A stretch of DNA of 63,972 bases, counting the filler, from Malassezia furfur (Eukaryota): the NCBI GenBank assembly GCA_052055015.1. It is 5 parts of 5 records of this genome, joined end to end, with 100 filler letters (N's around TTAATTAATTAA, not from the genome) between each part and the next. Parts side by side here need not be neighbours in the genome. Positions count along the whole stretch, not along the records: positions 1 to 13,277 come from JBQJIT010000323.1; positions 13,378 to 26,617 come from JBQJIT010000324.1; positions 26,718 to 39,943 come from JBQJIT010000325.1; positions 40,044 to 53,170 come from JBQJIT010000326.1; positions 53,271 to 63,972 come from JBQJIT010000387.1. One strand, 5' to 3'. Below, piece after piece: positions 8,641-63,682 of this stretch (positions within the stretch are counted from its first letter, which is position 1; every line of letters starts with the position of its first letter). Position numbers and translations under genes: made by a program. The notes under the pieces were generated by a model. It was not told the origin of the DNA and searched no databases. It was given only the letters and a program-made list of their open reading frames with translations.

Positions 8641-9382
8641 CTACTCGCGCAACGTACTCCCGATCGAGAAAGGGAAGGGCATTAGACTCGCGTCGCCCAC
8701 CGCCGGCAGCTGCGCCTGGTGCTCGTTGGCAAAGGTGAGTGCGGCCACTGCGTCAGTGTCTCACGTACAGAGGAAGGGGCCCAGCTCCGGCGATACGCTC
8801 CCCGGCGCCGCCTCGTAGACAATGCGCACGCTGAGCAGCCACTGCTCAAACGCCTCGGGCAGCGTCTCGAATGCCTCGTCGCGCGTCAGCACACGCCGTG
8901 CCTGCCCCCCGCGTGCATCTGACTTGCCGCCCGCCAGTGCGGACGCGAGCCACGAGTACGGCGAGTGGAAGATGGGGTACGACGGCGGCGCGCGGTCCTG
9001 CGCAGCAGGCGGCGCCGACGGTGACCGCGGCGTTTCAGCCGGCTCGTGCCACGATACGAGGATATCGACGAGCGCCGTGCCCTCGCGCTTCACCTCCTCG
9101 TCTGCGCGAGCAAGAATCTTGGCGGTTGTCTCTGCAACGCGCTTCTGCATCGTCGCGTCCAAGACATGCGGCTGCGTCAGACGACACGACGCACCAACTC
9201 CACGCCGCACACCTCGACGGTCATCGGCTCCAGCGTACCGAGCAGCCGGAAAAAAAGGACCGTGTGCAGCATGCCCTCAATCACCTCCTCGGCCTGTGCA
9301 CGCGCGAGCGTCTGGATGAGCGTGTGCTACGCACCACCTCGTGCGTAAACAGCGGCGGCGCGCTGGGGCGCATCGTGGGCAT
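8641..9382 (-). CDS. ATG101: Autophagy protein Atg101 (4 exons)
   Basis: Removing introns 9312-9334 (23 nt), 9172-9194 (23) and 8748-8768 (21) gives VIEGMLHTVLFFRLLGTLEP..AFEQWLLSV..HQAQLPAVGDASLMPFPFSI, the Atg101 pattern. Confidence 0.8.
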
Positions 9383-9408
9383 GTGGAGGCGGGGTGGGGT
9401 ATCTCGGA

Positions 9409-10193
9409 CTATGGCAAGGGGAACGCGGCGTGGCGCTCGTAAAACGCAAGCAGCGCCTGAGGGCATCGGGCCCGCACCACGGACGTGGGGTATACAAGAC
9501 GAGCCCCGTCCTTGAACGCGAGGTGGACACACAACGTAGACGATGCGTCACGCTCCACGCGAACGATCTCGTCGACGAACGGCTCCCAGTCCTCGAGCGC
9601 GTCGTAGGTCGCGCGCGGGTCGGCAGCGCCGCGCGCCGACGATGCACCGAGCACATTTTTCCGGCGCCGTTTCGGCGTGGCTTGGCGCAGCGGCGACTCG
9701 CGCGCGACCGGCGACCTCGTCCCGGACGATATGGATGCCTGTCTCCGTGTCGCGCGCTGCGTGCGCGCCGACACATTCGACGACTGAGGCGATGATGCTG
9801 CCGATGATGATTGCGGCGGGCTTGGCGGTCCGAGCGCCGACGTGACCGAATCAGGTGCAGGATCGTATCGCGCGGCTTTCGCCTGCATCCGGCGAATCCG
9901 CTGCATGGCCTCCTCAGAGGACATAGCCTGGCGCTCTGTCCAGTACTTGAACACCATATCTTCTGCGTCGATCGAGTGTTCCTGCGTGAGTCGTAGCACA
10001 TACCTCGGGCTCCCAGGAAAACACGCTGTCCGGATCTTTCCATTTAATTAGGTATTCAAATCGATCCTGCGTGAGCACGCGCGCATACAAGTTCGGTATT
10101 GTGCCTGTGCAAGATGATCGCTTCCACGACCGCCTCTTCCATATCGTCAGACGCTGACGCGCTCGGCGGCGCGCGTCTTTCCGACGCGGCCAT
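9409..10193 (-). CDS. HP1/Swi6-like chromodomain plus chromo-shadow protein (3 exons)
   Basis: Introns 10067-10088 and 9982-10003 (22 nt each). Chromodomain VVEAIILHR..FEYLIKWKD..SWEPEE; shadow domain DWEPFVDEI..RARCPQALLAFYERH. Confidence 0.85.
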
Positions 10194-10226
10194 GGCGTCG
10201 AAAAGATCACGTGTTCCTTTGTGACC
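10194..10226. promoter_or_regulatory. 33-bp bidirectional promoter with TCACGTG (10207-10213)
   Basis: Between divergent ATGs at 10193(-) and 10227(+). Confidence 0.55.
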
Positions 10227-10443
10227 ATGAGTCCCAAGTCGGCGGCTCGTGCGCAGCTGCGTGCGCTCGAGGCACAGTTCTACCAGCAGTTTGCCGTGCC
10301 CGGCCAGGAGCCCGAGGCGGGCGACCGTGCCAGTGCTGGCACGTCTGAGGAACATAGCGACGACGATCGGCCGTCGTCGTCGGCGCAGCAAAGCGACGCG
10401 CAAAGCGACGACGACGACGACGGCGCGAGCGAAGAGGATGCGA

Positions 10444-10474
<31 letters not shown>

Positions 10475-11288
10475 AGACGATGAGGGTGACGAGGACGCGA
10501 ACGATGACGAGCTTGACGATGGCGAAGACCTTCTTCAGAGCGCCATGACGCAGCCGCCGGCGCCTACCACGTCGGCTGCGTCGCGGCGACGACCGGTGGA
10601 GACGGTGGTGTTTTCTGAGACGCGCGGCGCACCATCCGGTGCGTCTGTTCCCGCAAGTGCGCGGCGCAACTTTATGGTACGTGTGTGTCTGATGCAGTCC
10701 TCGAAAATCGAGAAAATCAATGCACAGGATACGGCACAGCCCGCTGCGGGCTCGGACGACGACGAAGAGGGCGAGGAGGACCAGCGTGCGAACGACCGCA
10801 AGCTTGCCGAGCTGCTGTCCACGTCTCTTTTCGCGCCCGGCACGAGCACGCACAAGCGGAAGCTGAACACCACGACGAACGAGACGCTGGCGCGCGTGAT
10901 GGAGCTGTCGACGTCCGACACGCTGCATGCGCACGCGGCCGGCAGTGGGTGGGGGGAGAAGCAGCTGCGTGCGCAGGAGCTCGGCAAGATGCCTGCGCGG
11001 ATCCGCGCCGGCCTCCGGCGAGCGGCTGGCGAGCGGCGCGAGCGCGACATTGAGCTGCAAAAAGAGCTGGGGCTATGGAATCCGCGCTACCAGAACCACG
11101 CGCAGCTGAGCCGCGGGTCGGCGACCGAGCGTGGCTCGCGCCCGACCGAGCCCAAGAAGCGCATGCGCGGCATCGGCTCTGGCGTCGGCTCGTTCCGCAA
11201 CGGCACGCTGCACCTGTCCGAGGCGGACGTGCGCCGGATCCAGGGCCCTCCACGCGGCCAGGCGCGCCGCCGCGGCAAAAAAAAGTAG
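10227..11288 (+). CDS. FAF1: Faf1/C1orf131-like 40S ribosome biogenesis factor
   Basis: Acidic N-terminus; C-terminal RMRGIGSGVGSFRNGTLHLSEADVRRIQG. Probable in-frame 21-nt intron 10677-10697 (NFM|SSKI). Confidence 0.7.
10446..10472 (+). repeat. (GAC)9 trinucleotide repeat encoding poly-Asp
   Basis: Directly visible within the FAF1-like CDS. Confidence 0.9.
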
Positions 11289-13277: not shown

Positions 13278-13377
13278 NNNNNNNNNNNNNNNNNNNNNNN
13301 NNNNNNNNNNNNNNNNNNNNNTTAATTAATTAANNNNNNNNNNNNNNNNNNNNNNNNNNNNNNNNNNNNNNNNNNNN
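13278..13377. other. Artificial contig linker
   Basis: N44-TTAATTAATTAA-N44; stop codons in all six frames. Confidence 0.98.
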
Positions 13378-14041
13378 CAAAGCGCTGCTACAACACCCAG
13401 CTCTTGATTGACCAGCACGGCACCATTTGCGCCCAGTACCGCAAACTGCACCTCTACGATGTCGATATCCTCAACGGACCCTCGATCCTCGAAAGCAACA
13501 CCACGATCCCAGGCGACTCACTCGTTCCCCCTGTCGATACACCTCTGGGGCGTATTGGCGTACGTGTACCGTTCGCTTACCCAGCTCCTTACGTGCTACG
13601 ATATGCGCTTCCCTGAAGTGTCCCTCGCGCTGCGCCGTCAGGGTGCACAGCTGCTTACCTACCCCTCGGCCTTTGCACTGCGTACGGGGGCCGCCCACTG
13701 GTCCTTGCTCCTCCAGACGCGTGCCATTGAGACGCAGTGTTACGTCCTCGCTGCGGCCCAAGTTGGTACGTCCCGTACACACCCTAACCCAGGCTTGCAT
13801 CCAGGTACCACACGCTCTTCGTACGTATTTCTGCTCATACAGGTGGGGCCATGCGATGATCGTCGACCCATGGGGTACCGTTGTCGCGCAGTGCAGGTAG
13901 GCCGCCTACTTACGCAGCGATATGCCGCCCTTTGCACCGACGTTTTGCGTGGCTGACATTGATCTCGAGGGGCTGGAGCGTGTGCGCACGGATATGCCCC
14001 TCTGGAGCCAACGTCGGACCGAGATTTACCCCGAGCTGTGA
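13378..14041 (+). CDS. Nit1-type carbon-nitrogen hydrolase (deaminated glutathione amidase-like), 5' partial
   Basis: YRKLHLYDVD, LLTCYDMRFPE, RAIETQCYV, SWGHAMIVDPWG after removing introns 13560-13584, 13766-13792, 13821-13842 and 13897-13917. Confidence 0.9.
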
Positions 14042-14113: not shown

Positions 14114-15363
14114 ATGACCGCTGCCCCCTTGATCATCGAGTAAGCTGCGCGCATGTGCTAATCCACAGTACCGACCCTGGCGTCGACGACCTCCTCGCGA
14201 TTCTCCTCGCGCTGGGCTCGCCTGAGGTATCGCTCGAGGCCGTTACTCTCACGTTTGGCAACACGACCCTCGACTATGCGTACGACAACATGTTCCGTCT
14301 GGCCAACGCACTCCAAGTCACGGCCCAGAGCAATGCGCTGAACAACGACACACTGCACGATCGCGTGCTGAATGGTATTGATGGTCACCCAGTGCCGATC
14401 GCGATGGGCGCAACCAAGCCGTTGGGCGGGCGCCTGTTCACTGCGAGCTACTTCCATGGCCGTGATGGTATGTCGGGCGTCTCGTTCCTTCCCGATGACC
14501 CCTTCCCAAAGGCGACGCACACCAACCTGTTTGTGTCCTCGCCGACGCCCGCGGATGAGCTAATCCTCGAAGTGTTGCGCAAGCACCCGCCTAACACGGT
14601 CCGTATCGCGGCGGTTGCGCCGCTGACAAACCTGGCTTCGGCGTTCCTCAAAGACCCGGCCACTTTCCGCCGCGTTGGCTCTATCAGTATCATGGGCGGC
14701 GCGCTCGATGTGCCGGGCAATACGTCACCTACCGCCGAATTCAACTTCTTCGCCGATCCCTGGGCTGCCAAGGTGCTGCTCGAGGACGCCGTCGCGAACG
14801 GTGAACCGCCGCTGCCCGTGTACCTCTTCCCCCTGGACATCACGTCAGACCACACTGTGCCCTATTCGGAGCTGGTGCGCGATGCGGAGGATGAGCAGTT
14901 CAAGCGCAGCAACCTTTTCCAGCTGATCTCGCTCTTTTTGCGTAAGCCGCGCGCGGTGACCAACTCGTTTGCACCGCCTGAGGTGACGTTTGATGCGTCT
15001 AAGTACGATTTATTCCAGGCGCACGACCCGCTCGCCGTCGCGCACGCCATCTGCCCCGACGACCCGGGCTGGAAGTGGGAAGAGCGCCCCTTCTTGGTTG
15101 AGACGGAAGGCAAGTTGACGCGTGGGTTCTGCGTCGTGGACCGCCGTAACCACGGCGCGGCCGTCAAGGGCCGGAACAAGGCCGAGATCGAAGAGGTGCG
15201 TGGGCCCACCAACGAGCACGGCCTCGACAGCCAGCCTGAGGCCAAGAAGCAGAAGACAGGCCCCCTGATCCCCGAAGTGCCGCTGGTTAAGGTCGTGCAT
15301 CAGACACCGGGCATCCCTTGGTTCGCCAAGATGTTCCTAGAGCGTCTCGGATACCAGTCGTAG
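14114..15363 (+). CDS. Inosine/uridine-preferring nucleoside hydrolase family protein
   Basis: Removing intron 14140-14168 (29 nt) restores LIIDTDPGVDD; also HGRDG, PLTNLA, GNTSPTAEFN, HDPLAV. Confidence 0.9.
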
Positions 15364-15395: not shown

Positions 15396-16004
15396 TCACA
15401 CACCAGGCGGACGGAATCCCGGCGGCGGTGGGGCAAAGCCGGGCGGCGGGCCCACAGGCATGCCCGGCGGCGGCGGCATGCCCATCGGCGGGCGGCCCAT
15501 CAACGGCGCCATGCCGAGACCAGCGCCGCGGCCCGTCGGCACACCCTGGCCGGGTCCGGGCGCCATGGGCGCCTCTTGCTTAGGCTCCGGCGGGGGCGCC
15601 TCGACGCTCAGGCTAATGATGGTCTCACCACGCAGGATTACCAATCCTAATGTGCGCTTTTGTTCCTGCGCGGGCGCAGGCACATCGTCGTCCTCGTCCT
15701 CGTCCTCGACATGGCCCTCGGCGGTGTCGCCGTGCGCGACCTTTTGTTTCTTGTTCGGCTTATTCGCCTGCTTCTTTTTCTTGGGCTTTATCCGACGGAA
15801 TTCCTCCGCTGCGCGTCAGCATCTCCCCGTGACGTACTATTCGACAGCACCAGGTTCATGAAGGTATCGAATGCCAGCAGCTGGCCCGTCATCTGCCGAC
15901 CGTCATTGAGCGTTACACGCAGACGGTAGTCGATCAGGGCCATCATACGGCCACCCTTGGCCTTGACTGGCGGCTGCTTGTCAGCGGGCTGCGCAACGTA
16001 CCAT
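15396..16004 (-). CDS. SMB1: snRNP core protein SmB
   Basis: ATG-only first exon; introns 15974-16001 and 15809-15837. Sm1 DGRQMTGQLLAFDTFMNLVL, Sm2 TLGLVILRGETI, Pro/Gly-rich tail. Confidence 0.92.
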
Positions 16005-16143: not shown

Positions 16144-17597
16144 ATGCCGCTGGATTTGTCCAGTCTCCTGTCGAAATCCTCGTGTGACCTGCCGCTGTCT
16201 GCGATTCGTGGACTGCTTCCGCTGGAGAGCCGACCTGGTGTCATCTCGCTGCTCGCGGGAAAGCCAAACCCCAGCGGATTCCCTTTTGATTCTATCACGC
16301 TGCGGCTCAAGCCCACAGTTGAGGGTGGCAGAGATGCCCAGGGCAATCCAGTGGAGATCACCATCGATGGCTCGGAGCTTGAGCGTATTCTGCAGTACGG
16401 AAGTACTAACGGCGATGCGACGCTCGAAAGGGAGCTCACCAAGCTCGTCAGCCGCGTCCACCACCGCACACGCGACAACGGTGAGCCCGATGGCGCATTT
16501 GCGCTGGCTATTGGGTCAGGAAGTCAGGACTTGCTCTATAAGACGATCTCTATCTTGTTCAATCCGCAAGACACGGTGCTTGTCGAGTCGCCCGTGTATC
16601 CGTACGTGCAACGACTGACGCCAGCGGTTTCCTTCCGGAACTCGAGACGCACCGCGTCACGGCAGTAGGCATCTCCACCGACGAACAGGGTCTCTCGTCG
16701 CAGGCTCTACGCGATACACTCAAGAACTGGCACACGTCGGACGCGACCAAAGAGCTCCGGTTCCCCAAGGCGGTCTACACCGTGCCCACCGGCGCCAACC
16801 CGGCCGGCACTACGGCCTCCACCGAGCGCAAGCGCGAAATCCTGGCGACTGCGCGCGAGTATGGTTTGCTGGTGCTGGAAGACGACCCGTACTACTTCCT
16901 GACCTTTGAGGACATGTCCGAAGATGCTCTGGAGCAGAAGCGCGCTCTCAGCTATTTTGCGCTTGAGCGTGAAGATGCGGACAAGTGGGGGTATGGCTAC
17001 GTACTGCGCTTCGAGAGTTTCTCCAAGATCCTCTCGGCAGGTATGCGTGTTGGGTTTATGATGGGTCCGCCGACGCTGGTCAATGCCGTCGTGGCCCTCA
17101 CTGCTTCGTCCAACCTGCACGCGAGCGGACCGGCGCAGGCCATGGCTGGCGAGTTGATGCAGTACTGGGGGACCGACGGTTTCCTGCGGCATACCCACAA
17201 CGTCGCCCGAATGTACAAGGAGCGTCGCGATATGTTTGGTCGCCAACTTGACACCATCCTGGGGCGTGGCGAGGATGGAAAACAGGCGCCGATTGCGACG
17301 TACGTGACGCCCGTCGCCGGCATGTTTTACTGGATCAAACTGCACCTCCCGCCCACGGACGGCGCCCCCGAGGGCGATTCGTACCGTGTCATCTCGGAGA
17401 AGGCGCTCGAGTTTGGTGTTTTGGCCATGCCGGGAGGTGCCTTCTTTGTCGACAAACGCAAGACGCCGTATGTGCGCACGTCGTTCAGCCTGATCGAGCC
17501 GCAAGACGCGCACGAGGCCATCCTGCGTCTCCGTCGCGCTGCAGAGAGCGCCTGGAAGGACGCTGGATATGATGAGATCCCTGCGATGCAGACATAG
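16144..17597 (+). CDS. ARO8: PLP-dependent aromatic/2-aminoadipate aminotransferase (Aro8/KAT II-like)
   Basis: ISLLAGKPNP..FPF, LQYG, EDDPYYFL, FESFSKILSAGMRVG; 23-nt intron 16602-16624 joins the two track ORFs (VYP|GFLP). Confidence 0.88.
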
Positions 17598-17598
17598 T

Positions 17599-17866
17599 CT
17601 ACTCTTTCTTTTCTTGCGTTTCTTCGTTTTCCCGATCGACCTGGTCGAGCGCGGCCATGAACCTATGTGAGTCGATGGACGTACAAAGAGGCTTGGCCGA
17701 TCCCCAGGTCATTCATGTACGCTGCCTGCTCGCTTGCAATGGCCATGTAATGTTGGGTATGCTCGAGTGTATTCGACAGAGCAGCAATGCGCGATGCAAG
17801 GTAGGCATAGTGCCGCTCCTTGGCGCACGTCAGCGCCGTGCCTCCACTGCTCGACGCGTGCGCCAT
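17599..17866 (-). CDS. HSK3: DASH/Dam1 complex subunit Hsk3-like
   Basis: KERHYAYLASRIAALSNTL..ASEQAAYMNDLG..ASL|FMAA with 22-nt intron 17663-17684. Confidence 0.7.
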
Positions 17867-17959
17867 GGCCGTCTGTTGTCACGACGCGTCTGGTGCCGCT
17901 GACTCAGCGCGACATGGGGGCCAAAAAGTGCACGGCACGTGCACGGGCGCTCACTCCCC

Positions 17960-19284: not shown

Positions 19285-22200
19285 CTAGTGAGCTGAATGC
19301 AATGCGGAAATCTGCTGCTGTTTCTCGACGATCAGGAGAGCCGTGTCATGATGATAAGCATCGTCCTGGCGAGAAAGCACTCGCAGGTTGTCGCCGTGGA
19401 TTGTTTGACACAGCTTTCCCGTGAGTGGATCGCGCACTTCAATGAGCGACTCGTAGAAGGCCAGCACGTAGTTCGCGACGAAGGCCACGCGCGACGGACG
19501 ACCTTCCCAGTGGAAGACGGCATCGAGCCGAACGAGTCGCCCCATCACGTCGGTGTAGCATGCCAGACGATCGTAGCAAAGCAGAATCAGCGTGTCTGTC
19601 ACATAAAAGGCGCCAAGCGGCTTGGCACTTTCGAGGTGCCGGAGCATGCTCCAGGCCTGCGTATCGTCCCGAACTTTAATCGACGGCAGCAAGTCGAGAG
19701 ACTCTGAGTCAAGGCTGTACGTTTGGAAACCGCGGTGCGTGTACACCACGAGTGTGTGCCGCAGAAACTGAGCACCGGTCGCCTCGTAGCCAACGTAAAA
19801 CTTTTTGTACTCGCGGAAGTGGGAGAGCGTTTCGGATGGGCGGCGGCGCCAGAGCCCCATGCCGACGTCGTGGTGCCGTGCATGCGGGTCGATGGGCTCG
19901 AGGATGCGCACCGACGTCTCGCTCGTGCGCTTCTTTCCGTACACCAGCAGCTGGCGCCCGTCGACGTGTCCGACCGCAAAGAAGAGCACCTCGCGGTTGC
20001 CGCTAATCTTTTGCGGCGCAAAGCAAGTGGGTGCCGAGCGACTCGGTACCAGCGCCTCGAGGTCGTAGGCGATCAGCGCACGGTCAGCAAGTACGATAAA
20101 GTAGCCGAACCTCTCCATAACGGCGCACTGCGTCACGCCACGCAGGTGCAGCACCTTGTTGAACGGCTGTGGTTGGCCATACATGCCAATCCACACGCCT
20201 TCGCTCGTGCCGACGGCGAGCATCTTGGTCTCGTCTTGCAAGAAAAAGGACGTGGCACACGTCACGTCGACCTGCGCACCTGGCTGCGGGTGAACCTGCA
20301 GCCGGAAACACAGCGGTGTGCGCTCCAGCAGCGCGTGCGTCGCCTCCTGCTCCTGCACCCGCGCGGCGACCGAGAGAAAGTGCTGGTGCCACTCGGCGCG
20401 CTTCTGTGCAGTGGGCACATACAGTACGATGGGGTCATCGGTGGGCAGGTGCAGCGTGAATGGGAACATGTCGGTCAGGTCGCCGCGGAGCAGCCGTCGA
20501 TTCAGGTGGCCACGCGACAACGGCGGCTCTTCAAAGCCCGATGGAGCAAGGAGCGCGACGGGGATCGGCTGGGTAAGCGAAGCGACGCACCTTTTTGCTG
20601 TATACGAGTCGTACATGGCGCTCTTCCGTTTCCTGAGCGCCCTCGGCGTCCGAGGGTGGCTTGCGCTTGGCCAGCATCAAGTAGTTGTCAAAGAGCAGCG
20701 CTTCCATCTCGGTCCATTCGAATTCAAAGCCGTCCGGACGTCGGAAAACAACACCGTGGTGCAGCAGCTGACGCTGCGGGTTCCGCAAGTCGAGGTCCAC
20801 CTCGCTCTCAGTGCGCTTTGCCTCGAGACGCGCGGCGAACTCATCGACCTGTAGACGCTGTTCGGCCGCTTCGACACCCGCTTGGGCCACCTTGCATTGC
20901 TCGTCGATGATCTCGGTCGCGAGTGCCAGTTGCTCCCGGTCGCTGTTCTCGGCGTCGGAGTACTTGGCGATAGACTCCAGGTGTAGGTGGTAGCGCTGCA
21001 ATCGCGCCGGTGGGCGGAACAAAAAGTTGTCCAGAGGATGGCGATGCGCCGCTGGGTCGCGGCGGCAGTCGTCGGCGAATTTGGCCATGCGCGCATTGGT
21101 CGCGATCTCGCGCTTGAGCGTGTGCAGCGCTACAGGGTAGTGCTGCACATATGCCGTGTACGCGGGACCCCACTTCAGGGCGGCCTCGACGACGAGGTCG
21201 CCGAGCGACTCCACCATAGGGCTCTGCTCCCGCTGGCGCTCCTGTAGTCGGTCACAAAAGGCCGCGATGTGAGTAAGAAGCTCGGCGTAGTTACCGAATA
21301 CGGTTGTGATGAACTTGTCGAGCGCCATGCCCGAGAGCGGCGCCGTACGTGCCATCCCGACCCCCTTTGATTGGGCAAGCGCACGGAGTTGGTGTGCGTA
21401 CCGGTCGAGAAGCTGTAAGTCTTTCAGAAAACTTTCTTCTTTTTGGATCATCTCATGGATCGCATTCTGGCGCTCAATCTCGCGGCGTGGCAATGTCGCG
21501 ACCAGCTCGGCAGGCACCGTCTCCACCCAGGCCTGGGCAGCGGTGCTGCCCGGGTCGGCGTCGTCGGTCGCGTCGGCGACGCGCAAAGCGGCCGCATTCC
21601 ACGCCCTTCCGACACGCGGGCAGCTTGGTACGTAGCAATTGACGTGCGGCGGCGTCGACAGGCCACATGTGGGGCTATAGCAGCGCGTGAGCGGCGCCAA
21701 GACGCCGCTTGGCAGGTCCTGAACAGAGGCGCCGACACACGCGAGCGCCGCCTGGGGCCCGAGGCTGACCACATTGGGCGACTGCCGCACAAATAGCTCG
21801 CCCTCAACTGGCACGCCTTGGATCGCTGGCACGTCCAGTTTGTCGCTATTGGCGCCGTCGGAAAAGAACATGTACACTTCGTCGACGCCTGCACTCAATG
21901 CATGATCTTCCCAGTCCGCTTCGTGGATAAAGAGTTGCGTCTTGAATGAGCGTGCGATGCTCATGGCCATGTAGTGCGCATGTGCCTCGGGGATATCAAT
22001 GCCAAACTGTGCACAGGTCCGCACGTATTGCGAGATGATCTCCATGATGGCCTGCACGACCATCCGCCCTGTGAAGCTCAGTGGGTATACGACGCTGCCC
22101 TTAATGAGCGGCCGGCGCTTTAGCGTGCAGATGAGCAGCTGTGCAATTTGGGACAAGCGCGCCATGTCCACCGACGTGCCCTGCAGCACTGCCGCAGCTG

Positions 22201-26617: not shown

Positions 26618-26717
26618 NNNNNNNNNNNNNNNNNNNNNNNNNNNNNNNNNNNNNNNNNNNNTTAATTAATTAANNNNNNNNNNNNNNNNNNNNNNNNNNN
26701 NNNNNNNNNNNNNNNNN
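26618..26717. other. Artificial contig linker
   Basis: N44-TTAATTAATTAA-N44. Confidence 0.98.
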
Positions 26718-45787: not shown

Positions 45788-45834
45788 TTACGTGAAATGT
45801 GGAGGTGGGGCGCGGTCGGTGCGACGTTCGTATC

Positions 45835-53170: not shown

Positions 53171-53270
53171 NNNNNNNNNNNNNNNNNNNNNNNNNNNNNN
53201 NNNNNNNNNNNNNNTTAATTAATTAANNNNNNNNNNNNNNNNNNNNNNNNNNNNNNNNNNNNNNNNNNNN
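53171..53270. other. Artificial contig linker
   Basis: N44-TTAATTAATTAA-N44. Confidence 0.98.
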
Positions 53271-53338
53271 CTAATCCTAATCCTAATCCTAATCCTAATC
53301 CTAATCCTAATCCTAATCCTAATCCCTATCCTAATCCC
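53271..53338 (-). repeat. Telomeric repeat (TTAGGA)n, read as (CTAATC)n on +
   Basis: Nine perfect CTAATC units starting at the first base of the contig, then CCTATC, CTAATC. C-rich strand at a 5' end, as expected for a chromosome end. Confidence 0.88.
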
Positions 53339-53616
53339 TTTTATGGGGCAATCAAACTAACGCAAAATAAAGTTTTGCATGCGCAGCCTGTTATACGTAT
53401 CACCATTTCGACTAATTATAGATTCAAAACATCACGTCTTTGCGAAAATCATCTTACATGGCGTAACCCTAACGCTTATTCGGTTGCATACCCCATAAAT
53501 GATGGCGAGGCAGCATCTTACTATTATCCGAAACATTGAATCCATGATCTTCGTTAGCTTCGCGAGCATCACGGCTATAGAATAGAGTACTGATGAAGAG
53601 CAGTAGATTTAGCACA

Positions 53617-55014
53617 ATGCACCTTCCTATCCTTTACTTCTTTCTACTCTTCACTATAAGCGGTGTATTTGCGCATCTGCATTCACGTAATCGACGCGCT
53701 TCTATACCCACGCCCCCCAATGACCCTTTCTACTATCCGCCAGATGGCTGGGAATCTAAGCAGCCTGGTGATATCCTGAAGACTCGTAAAGTCAACCTCG
53801 CCCTATTCCAAGTTGACCAGCTAAATTACAAAGAGGCTCACCAGATTCTTTACCGAACTACTGCTTCATATGAGAGTGAGCCGTCTTATACGGTTACTAC
53901 TGTGATCGTCCCTTACAATGCTCAGAGGAACAAGCTGGTCAACTACCAAGTTTACACTGATGCCAATGGAGCTCAGTGCGCCCCTTCGTACTCGATGCGT
54001 AAGGGTGGCAACCTTGGCAACGACATTCTGCTTAATTACCAGCAGCTTTTATTTTCCACTTTCTTGGATGAAGGCTGGATTCTGACAATTCCTGATTATC
54101 AAGGACCGATGCGCGCTTTTGCTGCCGGACGGCTCGAAGCACACATGTCTCTTGATTGTGTCCGTGCTACGCTGAATTTCAACCTTACGGAGCTCAGCAA
54201 AGATGCCAAGGTCGTCACCTACGGTTACTCGGGAGGTGCCATCGCATCTGGCTGGACGGCTGCATTGCAACCTAGCTATGCACCCGAGATCAATGCAGTG
54301 GGTTTCGCTCTGGGGGGTACACCAGCCAATGTCACCAACACGGTGCAGAGCCTCGACAAAGGCCTATTTTCTGGGCTGTGTGTCACCGGTTTCACTGGAA
54401 TATACTATGCGTTCAGTTCAATCCAAGACTGGGCTAGGGGCAAAATCTATCCAAAAGGTGTGGAAGCCATGGAATATGCAAGGGCCCATTGCCTTATTGA
54501 TGTTCAGGTCAAATATCCATTCAACCATGTGTTCAGTGATGAATTCTTCAGGAACGGTGAAAATTTACTGTATGAACCATTCATCCAATCCATCATTGGT
54601 GATATCGTCTTGGGTCTAAAAGAAAGTGAAACACCGCAAGCGCCTGTTTACATGTTCCATTCTCAACATGATGAGATTGTTCCCTTCCCGGCCGCCAAGA
54701 AAGCTGCCGAGGACTGGGCCAAGCATGGGGCGGATGTCTTCTTCCAAGAGTTCTCTGACCTCACGTCCGAGCATGCATTCTCGGAAATTGGCAATATACC
54801 CAACACCCTCTTCTTCATCCGAGATCGCTTCGAAGGGAAACCATTTCCGAAAGGATTGACGCGCAAGGTTAGTCGAAATGGACTGGACGACCCGAATGCT
54901 TCCCTGCGTGGGCTTGAGTATCTCGTGAACGCCATTCAGGATGTTCTTGGCAGAAAAATCGGTCCTAGCGACTCCTTGATCAAGGAAAAGATCCTTCAGC
55001 AAGCATACTCGTAA
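53617..55014 (+). CDS. Secreted lipase, LIP (Candida/Malassezia secretory lipase) family
   Basis: Signal peptide MHLPILYFFLLFTISGVFA, PPNDPFY, CAPSY, PDYQGP, nucleophile GYSGG, DEIVP, SEH. Alternative ATG at 53593. Confidence 0.95.
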   Translation: MHLPILYFFLLFTISGVFAHLHSRNRRASIPTPPNDPFYYPPDGWESKQPGDILKTRKVNLALFQVDQLNYKEAHQILYRTTASYESEPSYTVTTVIVPYNAQRNKLVNYQVYTDANGAQCAPSYSMRKGGNLGNDILLNYQQLLFSTFLDEGWILTIPDYQGPMRAFAAGRLEAHMSLDCVRATLNFNLTELSKDAKVVTYGYSGGAIASGWTAALQPSYAPEINAVGFALGGTPANVTNTVQSLDKGLFSGLCVTGFTGIYYAFSSIQDWARGKIYPKGVEAMEYARAHCLIDVQVKYPFNHVFSDEFFRNGENLLYEPFIQSIIGDIVLGLKESETPQAPVYMFHSQHDEIVPFPAAKKAAEDWAKHGADVFFQEFSDLTSEHAFSEIGNIPNTLFFIRDRFEGKPFPKGLTRKVSRNGLDDPNASLRGLEYLVNAIQDVLGRKIGPSDSLIKEKILQQAYS

Positions 55015-55515
55015 TAAGTGTACAGTCTACGCATACTGGTCTCATTTTCTCCCGGGCAGTTTTATATGATACTTATAGTTCGTTCAGTCGTTTTCAATCG
55101 ATTCGTACTTTTGTAAAATGTGACCGTACCAGACGACATGTACACGCTTGGAAAGAGGGGCTGCATACACGACTACGAGGGTCGTCCGTCGCATGGGTTC
55201 CAGAGGCGTATTCGAAGAGCGAGCGAGCGAGCAATGCTTCTCCACTTCTTGCGAAAGGTTAAGGGGACGCGCAAGGATGTTCCTCCACATGTCCAAATCT
55301 GACCAATTTTTCATGAACGAGTCATTGCCCAATACGCCGAGACCCGAGCTCTGATCTATGGACGTTGGCGAAGCGGAATCTGAGCGTGATCAAAAGGGCC
55401 GTGCTCCATCCTCCCGCCTGTAGCTAGGAACGCATTCCTACACGTCCATACCAGGAATACGTTCGTTTCAAAGCAAACAGATTCATCTCTTATATACCCA
55501 ATTGACCGACATGCT

Positions 55516-57585
55516 CTACGGAAGAGCACGCACACTCGGCTCGCGGTCCCAGTAGCGCGTGCCGGCGGCCTTGATGAAGTCGCCTTCGGTGAGGTCCACG
55601 ACGCCCTCCGTGACCTCGATAGCGGCCTTCTTCAGCAGGGCATCGGCACTCTTCGTGTATCCGATCGCCTTCAGGTGCGCGTACGCATCCTGCACCCACT
55701 GCACAGAGGCGACCTCGCCGAGCACTTCCTGCGTGCCCTGCTCCGAAAGCACCACCGCCACTGCGTCGAAAACGACCGAGGGCGTGCCCGCAAGAATGCC
55801 GTCGGCGGAGATCACGGAGCCGTCCGAGAGCTTAATGCCGTGCGCGCGCGGCGCCACAATCGTCGGCAGCGCCTTCTGGTCCCGGATCGACTTGACCAGG
55901 CTCTCGAGCTGCTGCTTGTCGGAGCCGTGGGTGATCAGAATGCCCACGGTACGGCCCTCGATGGTGTTGCGCGAGTTGTGCGTGATCGACACCGCCGGGC
56001 TGGGCTTCATGTCGACCGCCTCACGGATGGGCTTCACCTTTTCGGGCAGCTCGATGCCGAGGCCCGCTGCAACACGCGCGGCGAGCGTCTCATCCACGTT
56101 GCGCAGGTTCGCCACGATGCGCTTAGGCACCTGGGGCAGCGACACTTGAGACAGCTCAAACACAAAGCCGTTCACCATGTGCGTCTGCTCCCAAGCCGGC
56201 AGCGAGCGCCAGTGCTGGCGCGGCTGCGTGTAGTGGTCCGCAAAGCGCTCGTCGCGAGCGCGGAGCTTTTCGCCCTGCTCACGCGGCCCCGTCGCAGCCG
56301 AAGACGTGCGGAAGCCAGAGAAGGGGCACACACGCGGGCCGGTCGGCTCGCCGGCGTCGTTCAGGCTGTTGGGCTCGTAGTTAGCACGACCCTTGGGCAC
56401 GTTCATCTGCATCATGCCGTCGCGCTGGAAGTTTTGCACAGGGCACTTGGACTGGTTGATCGGCAGCTGGTGGAAGTTGGACGTGCCCAGACGCGACTTT
56501 TGGGTGTCGAGGTACGAGAAGAGACGACCCTGCAAGAGAGGGTCGTCCGAGAAGTCGATACCCGGCACGACGTGCGACGGGCAGAACGCGACCTGCTCGG
56601 TCTCGGCAAAGAAGTTGTCCGGGTTGCGGTCCAGGACCATGCGGCCGACGATCTTGACCGGGACATCCTCCTCGGGGATGATCTTGGTCGAGTCGAGCAC
56701 ATCGTAGGGCTGCGCGTTGGCGAACTCCGCGTCAAACACCTGGATACCAAACTCCCACTCGGGGTAGAGACCGGCCTCAATGGCCATCCACAGGTCCTTG
56801 CGGTGGAAGTCATTGTCGGCGCCCTGCAGCTTCACCGCCTCGTCCCACAGCGTCGACTGGACACCGAGCTTGGGGCGGAAGTGGAACTTGACAAAGTGCG
56901 CTTCGCCCTTCTCGTTCACGAGCTGGAACGTGTGGATACCGAAGCCTTGCATCATACGCAGCGAGCGCGGAATGCCGCGGTCCGACATGTTCCACATCTG
57001 CATGTGCGTCGTCTCCGGCATGAGCGACGCCCAGTCCCAGAAGGTGTCGTGCGCCGAGCCGGCCTGCGGGAACGCACGGTCCGCCTCCATCTTCACCGAG
57101 TGGACCAGGTCGGGGAACTTGATGGCATCCTGGATAAAGAAGACGGGAATGTCGTTCCCGACAAGGTCCCAGTTTCCGTCCTTCGTGTAGAACTTGACCG
57201 AGAAACCGCGCACGTCACGGGGCGTGTCCACCGAGCCGGCGCCACCGGCCACGGTCGAGAAGCGGGCAAAGACCGGCGTCTTGGTGCCCTTCTTGAACAC
57301 ATCGGCCTTGGTGAGGTGCGAGATATCCTCGGTGGCCTCAAAGTAGCCGTGTGCACCCGAGCCACGAGCGTGAACAATACGCTCAGGAATGCGCTCGTGG
57401 TCAAAGTGGAAGATCTTCTCACGCAGGACAAAGTCCTCCAGCAGCGTTGGCCCGCGCGAGCCACCCTTCAAGCTGTTCTGGTTGTCGGACACAGGAACGC
57501 CCTGGTTCGTCGTGAGGCGTCCCTCGCCGCCCTGCTGTTGCGGGTCACCCGAAGGTCCGTATTCTGTCTTCACGTTCACACCCAT
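55516..57585 (-). CDS. katE: Large-subunit (clade 2, KatE/HPII-type) heme catalase
   Basis: [15 protein letters not shown] (distal His), DLVGND (Asn), RLFSYLDTQ (proximal Tyr), C-terminal DJ-1-like domain; intronless, no signal peptide. Confidence 0.95.
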
Positions 57586-58326
57586 ATTGCTGGTGGCTCG
57601 GGCTCAAAGTGGCCCGCCCTTTTGTACCGTTAACGCCGCCCATCCCGCCACTGTACCCTGGGGCACGAGCTAGTGATCTGGCAGCGCGTCTACGGGTTAT
57701 CTTCCAGGGTCTGTAAAATGGGCACCGTCTCATTCGTTGCTTTTTTGCGGGAAATCTGAGATTAGCTAATGCGCAGCTCCTGACTCGCTACCCTGCCGTC
57801 AAATTTTCGAAAGTGACGTACTTTCCCGCGGAGAAGTGGAAAGTCCGACAGTTGGCGACATGGGCTGCGCCCTAGACGCCCGCAAGCAAAATGACAACAT
57901 CCCCGCGTTACTAAAAAGGGGCTAGATGCCCTGGTACACGTCCGTCTATCTGTAGGCCTCGCTTCCGACGTGTTCATACGGCTCCCCCCCGCATTGCAAT
58001 TCGAATGCGAGTAGGTAAGCGGGGTTGTAATTAAGCTGTACCGAGTATTTCTGTGGGATAAGCTGGGGTTCACTATTCCCATGGCCCCGTATGGGGACGT
58101 GGAGGCTCACGGGCCTTCCGTACGAATTCATCCGGGAGCCCGTGCGCGCCTTTTCTTGTGCATGTCATTTCCACTCCGATGCACTGCGTCGTCTGCACGT
58201 GCAGGCTTAGTTTGAGGAGCGCTGAATAGCCAGTCAGTGGCGCACGTGGGCGACCTAATTTAGTGCACGGAGCACGATGCTTGTTGGTGCCTATCATGGA
58301 CGTATCCTTACTTGTCTTGTCTCGCA

Positions 58327-58333
58327 TATAAAA
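58327..58333 (+). promoter_or_regulatory. TATA box upstream of RNase T2
   Basis: TATAAAA 40 nt before the ATG. Confidence 0.5.
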
Positions 58334-58366
58334 TGAACGCACGTAGCCTTTAGCCTGCATCGCAGG

Positions 58367-59320
58367 ATGTTTAGAGCAGTGGTACTGGCGGGTTCACTCC
58401 TTTCCGCGATTGTTCATGCAAAGCTGTATGCCAACACGAGCACGGCCAACCATACCTGCATCCTGCAGACTCCCGTTCGGTCGTGCTCTGCGGCTTCTCT
58501 GAACCTCGGTGACCTCGATACTTGTTGCCAAGAAACCTACGGTGGATTACTCCTTGCAACGCAATTCTGGGACACTTACACGGGGTATGAGAGTCAAGGT
58601 CAACTGCTTCCTGAAAAGCACTGGACCGTCCATGGCCTATGGCCGGATCTCTGCAACGGTTCCTACACACAATATTGTGATCTCAATCGCCAGTATGATC
58701 CAAATCCGTCCCCTGCCGAGGTCAATGGGCAGACGGTGCCTAAGTACCAGGGGCCTGGCATTGATACCTTTGTGCGATCGGCTCAAAAACTTGATCTTTT
58801 GTCCTGGATGAACAAATATTGGGTCTCTCAGGGTCAGCCGAACAGTGATTTTTGGGCACACGAATTCAGTAAGCATGCAACATGCTACAGTACCTTTGAC
58901 ACGCCATGCTATGGGGAACATCATGAGGAACATGCAGACGTGATCGACTTTTTCGAGACGGTCGCCCGCTTCCATAAGCAACTCTCAACGTATTCGTGGC
59001 TGGAAGATGCAGGAATTGTGCCGAGCAATCAGACCTCCTACACTCTTAGTGACATTACAAATGCGCTGGAGAAGGTTACAGGCGCGAAGCCATATATTGG
59101 GTGCTCTGGACCACGCCACAACGAAACGTCTGGTGATCAGAATGACCACGGATTTACTGTATTGAGCGAGGTATGGTATTTCTACAATGTGGCAGGAAGG
59201 CCACAAGATGGTCATACGTATTCGGTCGACTCGTCGACACACTCAACTTGCTCATCTGCACCCGGTGCGATCAAGTATTACGAGCGCACGCCATCGAGCG
59301 AACAAAAAGTGAACATGTAA
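58367..59320 (+). CDS. Secreted ribonuclease T2
   Basis: Signal peptide; CAS I WTVHGLWPD and CAS II FWAHEFSKHATC. Confidence 0.95.
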   Translation: MFRAVVLAGSLLSAIVHAKLYANTSTANHTCILQTPVRSCSAASLNLGDLDTCCQETYGGLLLATQFWDTYTGYESQGQLLPEKHWTVHGLWPDLCNGSYTQYCDLNRQYDPNPSPAEVNGQTVPKYQGPGIDTFVRSAQKLDLLSWMNKYWVSQGQPNSDFWAHEFSKHATCYSTFDTPCYGEHHEEHADVIDFFETVARFHKQLSTYSWLEDAGIVPSNQTSYTLSDITNALEKVTGAKPYIGCSGPRHNETSGDQNDHGFTVLSEVWYFYNVAGRPQDGHTYSVDSSTHSTCSSAPGAIKYYERTPSSEQKVNM

Positions 59321-59550
59321 ACGGGGCGCAGTTTTCAACGGTCACAAAGCTCGCTACTAGGGCGCATTGATAGGGAATCGTATTGAGTTCTTAGGTGGTC
59401 CATGCGAACGCCACGACCTTTTTCACAGACCCATCCGGTGGAGTGAATAAAAAAACAATCCCATAGCACGGACCGCTACCCCATAATCTGCAGCCGCTTT
59501 CAGCGGATTGCTGATCGATTTCACCTTCCGCTTGACCTCACAACGAAGGG

Positions 59551-60450
59551 ATGGTGGAACGTGAAGACATCAAAATCCCATGTGGGGATGAGATCCTCGA
59601 CGCCTGGCTCTATCCTGCGGCAGGGGCGAGCGCAAGGAAACAATCCCCGGCAGTCGTGCTAGGCCATGGCCTCGGAGGTGTCAAGGAAATGCGTCTGGAT
59701 GCCTATTGTGAGCACTTCAGCCAGGCTGGCTTCGTGTGTGTAGCTTTTGATTACCGGTACTGGGGCAAGAGTTCGGGAAAGCCGCGAGGGCTGATTGATG
59801 TCGAGTTACAAATCGAAGATTGGAACACGGTGATTGACTATGTCTCCAAGCTGCCACAGGTGGATCCACAGAGGATTGGAACCTTCGGAAGCAGTTTTGG
59901 TGGTGGACACGTCATCCGCCTTGCGGCCACGAACCGGCTTGTGCGTGCAACGGTGAGTCAGTGCCCCTTTACGAATGGTTTCGCCTCTGCACGTACGGTG
60001 GGACTGCTCCCTCTGCCCAAGCTTGCCATGCTCTCTCTCTGGGACATCTTTTTCAGTTCCAAGGACGAGCCGGTACGTGTGTCGCTGCTGGGCAAACCCG
60101 GTGAGGCCGCACTTCTGAATACGCCCGACTGTGTCGCAGGGTGTCGTTCGCTACTACCGCCTGGTGTGGATACGTTTGACATCGAGGCCGTCCCCGCACG
60201 ACTTGTGCTTCATTTTCCCTTTTTGTACCCCGGCTCGTATGCGCGGTGCGTACCCACACCCATCCTTTTCGCCATTTGTGGGAGTGACTCGGTGGCTCCG
60301 CCGGGTCCGACGCTCTCCTATGCACGGCAGGCCCCCAAGGGCGTGATTCAGATGTATTCCGGCGTGGGGCATTTTGATATCTACACCGGCAAAGCGTTTG
60401 AGCAGGCCGTATCGAATTACACGGCGTTTTATCGAGTCAACCTGCAGTAA
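59551..60450 (+). CDS. Alpha/beta-fold serine hydrolase (bacterial-like)
   Basis: HGLGG, FDYRYWGKSSG, GSSFGGG nucleophile elbow, GSDSV, GHFDIY. Confidence 0.88.
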   Translation: MVEREDIKIPCGDEILDAWLYPAAGASARKQSPAVVLGHGLGGVKEMRLDAYCEHFSQAGFVCVAFDYRYWGKSSGKPRGLIDVELQIEDWNTVIDYVSKLPQVDPQRIGTFGSSFGGGHVIRLAATNRLVRATVSQCPFTNGFASARTVGLLPLPKLAMLSLWDIFFSSKDEPVRVSLLGKPGEAALLNTPDCVAGCRSLLPPGVDTFDIEAVPARLVLHFPFLYPGSYARCVPTPILFAICGSDSVAPPGPTLSYARQAPKGVIQMYSGVGHFDIYTGKAFEQAVSNYTAFYRVNLQ

Positions 60451-60706
60451 CTGCAGGGTCTACATAAAAATAGGCCGAGGGCCGTGCGCAGAGACCAATT
60501 ATGGCGTAGCAAGTGTGCATGTGCCATCATACGATCATCTCGTTCCTTACGACATTGGTCAAATGACAATGCGCCCTGACCAGGACATCTAGCTAATCGG
60601 TACAATGTGTCAACCTTATTGGTTCCTGTAAAAATGCGGGAGGACAGCTACATAGCCGTACGCCGTATGGGGCATGGGAGGATGTTCCCGTGGGGGTGGT
60701 ACATCC

Positions 60707-61791: not shown

Positions 61792-62012
61792 TGCGGGGCA
61801 CTGCGCAGAGGCGGTTTATTTTTTTTAAAAAAAAAAAATCATTTTTTTCTTGGAAAATGATTCTACGCGTCCGCTAGGTCTTTTTGCCAAATAGATTCAC
61901 GATACACCGAGACAGCATTGAATTGCATACTGGGATGCCATGTACCGCGAACTGACGTGTGCGGTGTTTCCTGCACCTCCCACATGAACGCGCGTGACCT
62001 GGATTGCCTCAT

Positions 62013-63017
62013 CTATTTGGAATGGATGGAATCTGCCGAGTACCTCGACATAGCTGCGATCTGAATGCTTTCGGAGAATGGATCCTCCATCAGCGTGTCG
62101 GGCGTGGTCGCCTCAGGCAACAAGCTGCGCCGCGTGCGCAAATGCGAGGGGATGCGCACGAGCTCGACGCGCCCCTGCACAAGCTGGATGCGTGTCGGGA
62201 CCGTCGGGGTGCGGCGGCTCGTACGTCCACTGTTCGTCCGTGCGCTGGACGTCTGGCGCGAGATCCGCTCCGAGTCCCATGAGCCGTAGTCTGAGTGGTC
62301 CTCGTACTCGTCAACGAGGTCGTTGAGGAAGGCATAAAATGTGCTATCGCGGCATGACTCGTCGGCACGCGCCGGGGGATAGGGCTGATTCCGTGGCCCT
62401 GAACACCGGCGCGGCGAGCGCACTTCAAAGCTGGACGCGGCGCGCGGAAGCGCGGCATGAAGATGCGGCGGGTCCGGCGTCGCATTCGAGGGTGGAACGG
62501 GTGACCCACTGATGGTCGGCATGGCATCCCAGCGGCGGTACGCGGCGCGGACCCGGTGGGGTGTTTCGGGCGGCTCGGCCATCTCGGTGATGCGCCAGAG
62601 GTCGTGACTTGAAGCCGGGGCGACCGTGCCCGGCGCGGTGCGTGGCTTTGGGAACGAGTGGGGTGAGCGTTCTGGGATATCTTCTGCATGCAGTTGAGGC
62701 GACATGAGGACCGACGGCGGCATGGGCGGCAGCGTCGGCCGCGGCGAGGGCGGGGGGAGGAGTGGCATGGTTTTCTGGAGGCGGCGGTAGAGCAAGTAGA
62801 GTCCGCCCACGAGCAGAATCGCACCGAGGCACCCGCCCACGGCGGCGCCTATCACTGCATCATGCGCGCCACTCGATCCTGCGTCCGGAACACACACGTT
62901 CGCTGGGCACGTATCGCACGAGAGCGGATAACTCTGCTGGCACACCTCGTGCTCGGCGCACGGTGGGCACGGTGGGATCTCGGCGCAGTCCGCACACCCC
63001 GTCCACGACTCCAGCAT
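62013..63017 (-). CDS. OPY2: Opy2-like single-pass membrane anchor (HOG/filamentation MAPK signalling)
   Basis: Eight-Cys N-terminal domain CADCAEIPPCPPCAEHEVCQQSYPLSCDTCPANVC, one TM helix, disordered cytoplasmic tail. Confidence 0.75.
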   Translation of the reverse strand: MLESWTGCADCAEIPPCPPCAEHEVCQQSYPLSCDTCPANVCVPDAGSSGAHDAVIGAAVGGCLGAILLVGGLYLLYRRLQKTMPLLPPPSPRPTLPPMPPSVLMSPQLHAEDIPERSPHSFPKPRTAPGTVAPASSHDLWRITEMAEPPETPHRVRAAYRRWDAMPTISGSPVPPSNATPDPPHLHAALPRAASSFEVRSPRRCSGPRNQPYPPARADESCRDSTFYAFLNDLVDEYEDHSDYGSWDSERISRQTSSARTNSGRTSRRTPTVPTRIQLVQGRVELVRIPSHLRTRRSLLPEATTPDTLMEDPFSESIQIAAMSRYSADSIHSK

Positions 63018-63133
63018 GCTGGTCGGGATGCATTGCGCCGTGCCGCGCGCGTCGGCGTGCGTGGGTGCCGCGCGTGTGTCGCGTCGTGATCTGTGCGCGA
63101 ATTCGGTTCGCGTGGCCCTCCACGTCGGCGCGG

Positions 63134-63682
63134 ATGGAGCGGTGCGTGGACGCGGCGCTGACGCAGGCTCACGGTACACGCGCGAGCCACGGTCGTGGCC
63201 GACGCCGACCTGCGTGGCGATATTACGATTGGGAGTGGTACGTACGGCGCGCTGACGTGGGCACCGTCGTGCATCCTCGGTGCAAGATTGATGCGACGCT
63301 CGCGCCGATCCGACTCGGCGACAATTGCCTCGTGGAGGAGGGCGCGGAGCTGGTGAGCACGGCCGCCGGGATGACGATTGGCGACGGCAACCTGTTCCGT
63401 GCCGGATGCCGTGTCTCGTCGCGCGAGATTGGCAACTGCAACGTGTTTGAGCCGCGGTGTGTCGTGGACGCGGCGTGCGTTGCGTCGTTTTGCACCGTCG
63501 GCGGGGGGTGCCAGGTCCGCGACGCCCACCTTGCCGAGCGTACCGTGGTGTATGGTGCGCCGGCTGCGCGGCGGACATGGAGCGGCGAGGGCGTCGCGCA
63601 GCGCCTCGCATTGCACGCCAAGCACCTGCAGTACCTGCGCGACACGCTGCCCCACGCACACAAACTGCGCCTCATTCGCTAA
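63134..63682 (+). CDS. DCTN6: Dynactin subunit 6 (p27), hexapeptide beta-helix, 3 exons
   Basis: MERLTVHARATVVADADLRGDITIGS|GTVVHPRCKI..PIRLGDNCLVEE..HLQYLRDTLP; introns 63142-63166 and 63238-63260 (the latter ends GG). Confidence 0.85.
   Translation: MERCVDAALTQAHGTRASHGRGRRRPAWRYYDWEWYVRRADVGTVVHPRCKIDATLAPIRLGDNCLVEEGAELVSTAAGMTIGDGNLFRAGCRVSSREIGNCNVFEPRCVVDAACVASFCTVGGGCQVRDAHLAERTVVYGAPAARRTWSGEGVAQRLALHAKHLQYLRDTLPHAHKLRLIR

Follow-up and report, generated by a model that had tools for sequence, protein, structure and literature searches.

Very short introns of stereotyped layout in a composite window of Malassezia furfur DNA

Introduction

Introns in yeasts of the genus Malassezia are known to be very short. 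For M. sympodialis, Table 2 of PMC5389616 gives 5350 introns in 4493 genes, with a mean length of 30 bp and RNA-seq support for 99%, and the transcript assembly in the same paper allowed introns of 10–2000 bp. For M. restricta, Table 1 of PMC9241646 lists intron lengths averaging 37.2 with a median of 30.0, annotation of this species set the lower limit for introns at 20 and 15 (PMC6473144), and a passage in a review of the genus mentions 'very short introns' (PMC7426719). Here we describe 37 introns in 21 genes of M. furfur DNA, found in a window of 63,972 nucleotides (nt), which is the whole stretch analysed, filler included. All are 21–29 nt long (median 22, mean 23.3) and, judged from their sequence, they are very probably spliceosomal introns of the U2 type (GT-AG) from a Malassezia yeast, reduced to little beyond their signals. 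As in M. sympodialis and M. restricta, these are very short GT-AG introns, present, as in the former, at about one per gene; their median and mean fall below the M. sympodialis mean and the M. restricta median of 30, a comparison made on n = 37 and with longer introns possibly missed. The phenomenon is already known for the genus, and the existence of tiny introns is no news. The sequence-only reading of this window had called Malassezia introns short without saying whether a 22-nt mode is documented for this species; passages in PMC5389616, PMC7426719 and PMC9241646 document very short introns at genus level, and public M. furfur gene models splice them. The introns of the window are nevertheless among the shortest of any fungus, and the donor, branch and spacing rules described here are absent from the passages on M. 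sympodialis and M. restricta; in Creative Commons-licensed PMC and bioRxiv literature we found no description of the most frequent intron length in Malassezia, of its branch spacing or of its spliceosome.

Ciliate introns (Paramecium, Nyctotherus) are nearly all about 25 bp long and have canonical ends (PMC5014332). The introns of the window likewise fit both splice sites and the branch into about 20–30 nt, but ciliate introns are AT-rich and come from an unrelated lineage, whereas those described here have a G+C content of 58% and a strong fungal-type CTNAY motif. For myxozoans and dicyemids, PMC13644364 reports median lengths of 22–27 bp, with 22 bp in two myxobolids, and reduced splice-site motifs. 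The myxobolid median equals that of the window, although those organisms are animals and the motifs here are unusually strong and stereotyped. In the part of this 2026 survey that lists lineages with introns below 30 bp, ciliates, Microsporidia and Dicyemida appear and Malassezia is unnamed, and microsporidian introns are cited there as very few and inefficiently spliced (median ∼25%). Microsporidia share with the window introns of fungal lineage below 30 bp, there in a reduced genome, but about half of the window genes bear introns (37 introns across ∼39 genes) and essential genes such as SmB and a RuvB-like helicase depend on them. Gene-deletion and insertional-mutagenesis tools for Malassezia are published (PMC5654937), and culturable Malassezia seems under-used as a system in which to test how small a spliceosomal intron can be.

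Results

The introns share one stereotyped layout

Five pieces make up the window, with four spacers between them (13278–13377, 26618–26717, 39944–40043 and 53171–53270), each consisting of a 12-base gap flanked by runs of 44 Ns; in the first spacer, the 12-base gap is a stop linker for all frames. The span from 8748 to 63260 that holds the introns is therefore not a single contiguous locus, and genes are cut at the joints, namely NIT2 (without ∼90 N-terminal codons), a RuvB-like gene, a BRCT gene and a Mug190-like gene. G+C content ranges from 54 to 69% in 4-kb bins. Both strands were scanned with a loose motif (GTRNGY, a spacer, CTNAY, 0–4 nt, YAG), which allowed lengths down to 17 nt and may miss longer introns. 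The scan gave 38 matches, compared with 6.4 ± 2.8 expected and a maximum of 16 in 200 dinucleotide-Markov shuffles, and 25 of the matches were 21–23 nt long, as against an expected ∼1.3. When GTACGT was required as the donor, 19 matches were found against 0.10 expected (maximum 2 in 300 shuffles). Sense orientation within gene models was seen for 35 of the 38 loose-motif matches. Two accepted introns lie outside the strict motif: 46394–46414 (donor GTACGA), detected through a gap in homologues, and 63238–63260 (ending in TGG), implied by the end coordinate of the sequence-only reading. That reading had counted 36 introns in 19 genes with lengths of 21–29 nt; we recovered its length histogram and added a single 24-nt intron (42251–42274), the full distribution being 21 nt (5 introns), 22 nt (14), 23 nt (8), 24 nt (1), 25 nt (3), 26 nt (2), 27 nt (1), 28 nt (1) and 29 nt (2). 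No intron below 21 nt was accepted, though the scan reached 17 nt.

At the donor, G1, T2 and G5 are invariant (37/37), while A3 occurs in 31, C4 in 28 and T6 in 31 of the 37 introns, a consensus that arises partly by construction, 35 introns having been found through the GTRNGY filter. A spacer of 6–12 nt, with a mode of 7 nt (14 introns), separates the donor from CTNAY, which is present in 37/37, both motif-independent introns included. Its variants are CTGAC (12), CTCAC (9), CTAAC (5), CTCAT (4), CTTAC (4), CTAAT (2) and CTGAT (1), and by consensus we infer its A to be the branch point. This putative branch A is at position 16–22 from the 5′ end, never below 16, and it lies 5 nt from the intron end in 29 introns, as against 6 nt in another 5 and 7 nt in the remaining 3. 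The 3′ ends are CAG in 33 cases, TAG in 3 and TGG in 1, that is, AG in 36/37. The description of usually only 1–2 nt between the branch motif and YAG proved accurate (1 nt in 29/37, 2 nt in 5/37, 3 nt in 3/37, with 63238–63260 as the non-YAG case), and because only 1–3 nt lie between the branch motif and CAG, a polypyrimidine tract cannot exist. The example quoted for this layout, 8748–8768, has exactly the minus-strand sequence given, with the branch A at position 16. Introns of the HAC1/XBP1 type have twin stem-loops, are cut by Ire1 and are confined to one bZIP mRNA; the sharing of a GT...CTNAY...AG layout across 21 unrelated genes argues against such a type here.

Homologues, solved structures and paralogues support removal

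As independent evidence of removal, homologues were fetched and aligned with every reading frame of the window. Homology-type evidence is available for 22 of the 37 introns, through homologue alignment (12), colinearity with solved structures (2), paralogues (3) and Pfam or domain colinearity (5). All 12 introns tested on fetched homologues were upheld (permease 4/4, ATG101 3/3, NIT2 4/4, the unnamed gene at 10194–11246 1/1). In ATG101, on the minus strand, the 21-nt intron 3 (8748–8768) carries an in-frame stop and corresponds to an exact 7-amino-acid gap in the M. obtusa homologue, and the conserved C-terminus is reached only after its removal. Across the frame changes at intron 2 (9172–9194, 23 nt) and intron 1 (9312–9334, 23 nt), homologue residues 52/53 and 13/14, respectively, meet. 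On the plus strand, the unnamed gene at 10194–11246 contains a stop-free, in-frame intron of 21 nt (10677–10697), whose 7 residues are absent from 9/10 homologues; the tenth has an intron-like insert of 8 residues at this site.

Four introns on the plus strand interrupt NIT2. At 13560–13584 (25 nt), the match, in frame 3 up to homologue residue 151, goes on in frame 1; the matches on the two sides of this junction share one residue in four homologues and overlap by three in one, and the CN_hydrolase profile is covered at 90–145 and then at 147–211. The 27-nt intron at 13766–13792 is stop-free and falls on a 9-amino-acid gap in 5/7 homologues and a 10-amino-acid gap in a sixth. Removal of 13821–13842 (22 nt) leads from frame 1 to frame 2 with the homologue continuous over the junction. 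The fourth intron, 13897–13917 (21 nt), has an in-frame stop and matches an exact 7-amino-acid gap in 5/7 homologues, the exceptions being P0126, aligned only just downstream, and the most distant homologue, P0137, whose alignment is unclear.

In the amino-acid permease gene, also on the plus strand, the homologue N-terminus ends in frame 1 at intron 1 (46124–46149, 26 nt), the next exon lies in frame 3, and the exon after intron 2 (46179–46201, 23 nt) lies in frame 2; the 9 codons of exon 2 are 100% identical to M. psittaci residues 96–104. Intron 3 (46312–46332, 21 nt), which has an in-frame stop, corresponds to an exact 7-amino-acid gap in 8/8 homologues. Intron 4 (46394–46414, 21 nt, stop-free) corresponds to such a gap in 7/8, and the eighth homologue (P0010) has a longer gap that covers the site. 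Non-Malassezia basidiomycetes are among the homologues that skip both 21-nt segments.

Intron 2 of SmB (15809–15837, minus strand, 29 nt) is supported by colinearity with solved SmB chains across a frame change: exon 2 aligns up to chain residues 40–46, and exon 3 aligns from 52–62 in the other frame. Three Trk transporter paralogues on the minus strand have a 22-nt phase 0 intron at a common position (32255–32276 in paralogue 1, 35081–35102 in paralogue 2 and 38206–38227 in paralogue 3). The spliced junction is conserved among the three, and the unspliced frames diverge. These genes, TrkH-family potassium transporters in tandem at 29444–38353 (minus strand), share this intron at the same N-terminal position.

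The sequence-only reading had stated that nearly all excisions restore the reading frame or a conserved motif, and the tests agree: the interruptions are genuine, intron-like and equipped with signals of spliceosomal type, and both frames and conserved protein sequence are recovered. That they stem instead from frameshifts in sequencing, from lesions in pseudogenes or from motifs matched by chance is hardly conceivable. High G+C content does produce long chance open frames, about 3.6 chance matches to the loose motif are expected at 21–29 nt, and one candidate lacks an AG. Against this stand the enrichment of the motif, six-fold in its loose form and ∼190-fold with GTACGT, the 12 of 12 introns upheld on homologues, and the presence of the same junctions in independent public M. 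furfur models of ATG101 and NIT2, which are identical to those found here.

Public gene models translate some stop-free introns

By protein identity, the source DNA is that of a Malassezia, M. furfur or a very close relative: for ATG101 and NIT2, the pair of genes compared, the proteins match M. furfur entries at 96–100% identity. Compared with an M. furfur entry, exons 1 and 2 of ATG101 are 100% identical and exon 3 is 93% identical. NIT2 is 98% identical to two M. furfur entries in the search listing and 72–98% (also put at 89–98%) identical per aligned stretch, the low values arising because the aligned stretches run into introns. The best named match of the permease is from M. psittaci, at 69%. 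A metagenome scan with the permease returned 73 loci from other fungi, with best-segment identities of 28–62%, and no close Malassezia relative was recognised among them.

Public M. furfur models splice the 21–27-nt introns of NIT2 and both 23-nt introns of ATG101. One M. furfur NIT2 model retains the 27-nt intron as coding sequence, and another, P0127, splices all four. The public M. furfur model of ATG101 has 146 amino acids, as against 228 in M. brasiliensis and 233 in M. obtusa; where introns 1 and 2 lie, the M. obtusa protein has one insert each, of 7 residues with a terminal LTQ, and the M. brasiliensis model reads through the 21-nt intron. At the 10677–10697 site, P0246 retains an 8-residue insert, and the introns translated in it and in the M. 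obtusa and M. brasiliensis ATG101 models measure 21–24 nt. Stop-free micro-introns are translated as 7–9 residues, often ending in LTQ, in public or predicted Malassezia models among P0123, P0124, P0125, P0126 and P0246. The sequence-only reading had expected gene finders with default minimum intron sizes to mis-annotate many genes, naming ATG101, HP1, HSK3 and DCTN6; this stands for ATG101, the one of the four that was compared, in the form of truncated and read-through models. Protein sets of this medically relevant genus thus very probably contain avoidable errors from stop-free micro-introns with lengths divisible by three, and a search with the motif GTACGT, 6–12 nt, CTNAY, 1–3 nt, CAG would catch those that are translated.

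Such models also allow an opposite view, in which some stop-free introns of this class (10677–10697, 13766–13792, 42251–42274 and 46394–46414) are sometimes translated and the insert-bearing models are correct isoforms. The inserts do occur in public or predicted proteins of relatives (P0126, P0123, P0125 and P0246), and 4 of the 7 multiple-of-three introns are stop-free, the other 3 having an in-frame stop. However, the inserts are absent from 9/10, 6/7 and 8/8 homologues, non-Malassezia included, they bear complete intron signals, and in P0127, the other M. furfur model, the 27-nt segment is spliced out. Moreover, multiple-of-three lengths are if anything under-represented (7/37, one-sided binomial p = 0.041). 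We consider translated isoforms decidedly improbable. In Paramecium, intron lengths that are multiples of three are depleted, a bias that the present count hints at weakly.

Domains, frames and motif place the remaining introns

The HP1-like gene on the minus strand has two 22-nt introns, intron 1 at 10067–10088 and intron 2 at 9982–10003, both placed by chromo and chromo shadow domains that lie in different frames; at intron 1, the unspliced frame meets stops. The middle exon of 21 amino acids corresponds to Chromo profile positions 15–36 (E 0.011, below the Pfam cut-off), and the chromo shadow domain follows downstream in the third frame. In the aminotransferase gene (intron 16602–16624, plus strand, 23 nt), Aminotran_1_2 positions 33–101 reach up to the donor, and positions 133–358 start at residue 28 of the next exon, in the other frame. 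The two frames of the RhoGEF/CNH (Rom2-like) gene, of 703 codons with RhoGEF and 427 codons with CNH, fuse only upon removal of the 22-nt intron at 20569–20590 (minus strand). By frame and motif, removal of a 23-nt intron in the gene of a VTT-domain protein (48485–48507, minus strand) fuses frames of 244 and 264 codons.

At other introns a domain edge coincides with an exon boundary. The first residue of exon 2 of the nucleoside hydrolase is position 5 of IU_nuc_hydro (intron 14140–14168, plus strand, 29 nt), and position 9 of the GDT1 profile is the first residue of the exon that follows the first GDT1 intron (29145–29170, minus strand, 26 nt); both genes meet stops when read unspliced. DASH_Hsk3 ends at the donor of the 22-nt Hsk3 intron (17663–17684, minus strand) with positions 1–44 of 45, this intron being otherwise placed by frame and motif. 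In the same way, TIP49_C (1–62 of 66) ends at the donor of the RuvB-like helicase intron (41295–41316, plus strand, 22 nt), where splicing adds a 28-residue tail with a stop at 41403, and Zn_clus (2–30 of 39) ends at the donor of the intron in a Zn(2)Cys(6) factor gene (44527–44548, minus strand, 22 nt), which is flanked by frames of 141 and 507 codons and would meet a stop after 2 codons if unspliced.

Frame and motif place a further set. SmB intron 1 (15974–16001, minus strand, 28 nt) belongs here, the unspliced reading stopping after 7 codons. The BRCT protein has introns at 25818–25839 (plus strand, 22 nt) and 26020–26044 (plus strand, 25 nt), with the BRCT domain in the exon that follows the second. 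The last GDT1 intron (28440–28462, minus strand, 23 nt, phase 1) leads on removal to a hydrophobic tail of 25 residues, which we take to resemble the C-terminus of the family, and the unspliced frame stops after 8 codons. An alternative partner for this intron, the minus-strand frame 26789–28438, was rejected as antisense to a plus-strand gene; the intron lies instead at the 3′ end of GDT1. The unnamed gene at 44906–45790 (minus strand) has intron 1 at 45732–45754 (23 nt) and intron 2 at 45647–45668 (22 nt). In the Josephin (ataxin-3-like) gene on the plus strand, removal of intron 1 (41539–41560, 22 nt) brings the ATG at 41493 into line with the Josephin frame, and intron 2 (42004–42025, 22 nt), which has the support of domain colinearity, precedes a UIM-bearing exon in another frame; exon 2 aligned to ataxin-3 chains until 2 residues before the intron 2 donor, and a PDB search with exon 3 gave UIM-type matches only, leaving the junction region unaligned. 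Intron 3 of this gene (42251–42274, 24 nt, stop-free) is a match to the motif alone (GTACGT, CTAAC, G, CAG), for which 0.10 matches are expected per window. As a separate observation, SmB intron 1 (region 15974–16004) directly follows the ATG, so that exon 1 codes for the initiator codon alone.

A dynactin-6 intron ends in GG

The dynactin-6 gene on the plus strand has a 25-nt intron 1 (63142–63166) whose removal connects exon 2 with the ATG at 63135, and a 23-nt intron 2 (63238–63260) that ends in TGG instead of YAG, with complete donor and branch modules. Intron 2 is supported by colinearity with solved DCTN6 chains: exon 2 matches chain residues 14–30 (weakly, E 0.3–0.6, yet as the sole matches) and exon 3 matches from residue 33, and only the excision of exactly 63238–63260 preserves both the frame and this colinearity. 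Use of the next AG was rejected, as the intron would then be 49 nt long with an immediate stop. The GG end may stem from an error in the assembly or a lesion in the strain, or it may be a genuine non-AG acceptor.

How the layout may be read by the spliceosome

Several points weigh against taking these segments as U2-type introns reduced to their signals. In all 37 cases the support for removal (frame, homology or motif) is at the level of sequence, and 15 introns are without homology-type evidence, 5 of them placed by a Pfam edge, 9 by frame and motif and 1 by motif alone. The motif statistics are partly circular, 35/37 introns having been found through the motif; the two found independently of it, 46394–46414 and 63238–63260, have the same layout. 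The branch point was placed by consensus rather than by mapping, and one intron terminates in GG. Pfam returned no family for 8 of 12 precise short exons, and the RuvB-like tail of 28 residues, searched against the PDB, matched only unrelated ydhR chains (E ∼1). Because the window is a composite of five pieces, it says nothing firm about the genome-wide distribution of intron lengths.

In the U2-type reading, each intron breaks down into three modules that abut one another: the 5′ splice site, in most cases GTACGT, then 6–12 nt of spacer and finally a 3′ block made of CTNAY, 1–3 nt and CAG. The 3′ block is nearly fixed, with length varying in the donor–branch spacer alone. Given this near-fixed block, the first AG past the branch probably serves as the 3′ splice site, a polypyrimidine tract having no room. 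The floor at 21 nt probably reflects the shortest distance from the 5′ end to the branch A, about 16 nt, with which the core of the spliceosome can cope.

The sequence-only reading had gone on to suggest an adapted spliceosome, a lariat of 16–17 nt leaving little room for U1 and U2 to bind simultaneously. This would be more than the standard machinery at its limit, for example with a changed U1 5′ end that matches C at +4, with U2AF-type recognition of polypyrimidine lost or remodelled, or with sequential binding of U1 and U2. The gaps of 6–12 nt from donor hexamer to branch motif and of 1–3 nt from motif to CAG speak for such a change, as do the sharp floor at 21 nt and the C at +4 in 28/37 introns, since C at +4 would mismatch the canonical U1 5′ end. 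On the other side, SmB, the sole core spliceosomal protein seen in the window, aligns normally to solved chains, and for other lineages with introns of 22–27 nt and reduced splice motifs the part of PMC13644364 consulted reports no new machinery. We consider an adapted spliceosome rather unlikely. Rfam gave 0 matches on the window, hence no small nuclear RNA genes lie in it.

A bolder proposal, which we regard as quite doubtful, is that the spliceosome works here by fixed distances, with a 5-nt ruler from the branch A, a usable GG end, 16 nt as a true floor and a changed U1/U6 to match C at +4. The 3′ splice site would then be set by the ruler and not by AG plus a pyrimidine tract. If this were true, Malassezia would be a genetically tractable model of minimal-intron splicing overlooked by intron reviews. 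The rigid architecture and the GG terminus merit a test at the bench.

Rejected candidates and further intron-like modules

Among the motif matches, 13630–13658 and 13630–13662 were rejected as antisense within NIT2 and 58246–58263 as intergenic. Alternatives of 36–54 nt that share accepted acceptors, such as 41525–41560 (36 nt), give the wrong frame. A relaxed scan combined with a codon-usage score produced 117 candidates, mostly in-frame pieces of exons with a high coding score when read through, and a second relaxed scan produced 17, none of them convincing, and missed 46394–46414.

Four further modules were noted and not accepted: a 21-nt in-frame module ending in AAG in the unnamed gene (45233–45253, minus strand), a 29-nt module upstream of the catalase start (57793–57821, minus strand), a 29-nt module (25458–25486, minus strand) whose branch reads TTCAC, at the 5′ end of the sulfate permease, and a 50-nt module upstream of the CDP-alcohol transferase gene (17858–17907, plus strand). 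These may be introns in untranslated leaders. The first part of the last piece (53271–60500) has a lower G+C content (0.54–0.57) and is poorly described by the codon model, under which the LIP lipase of this piece scores 35.9 bits over 411 codons; its genes, for a lipase, a catalase, an RNase T2, a hydrolase and NMT1/THI5, contain zero accepted introns.

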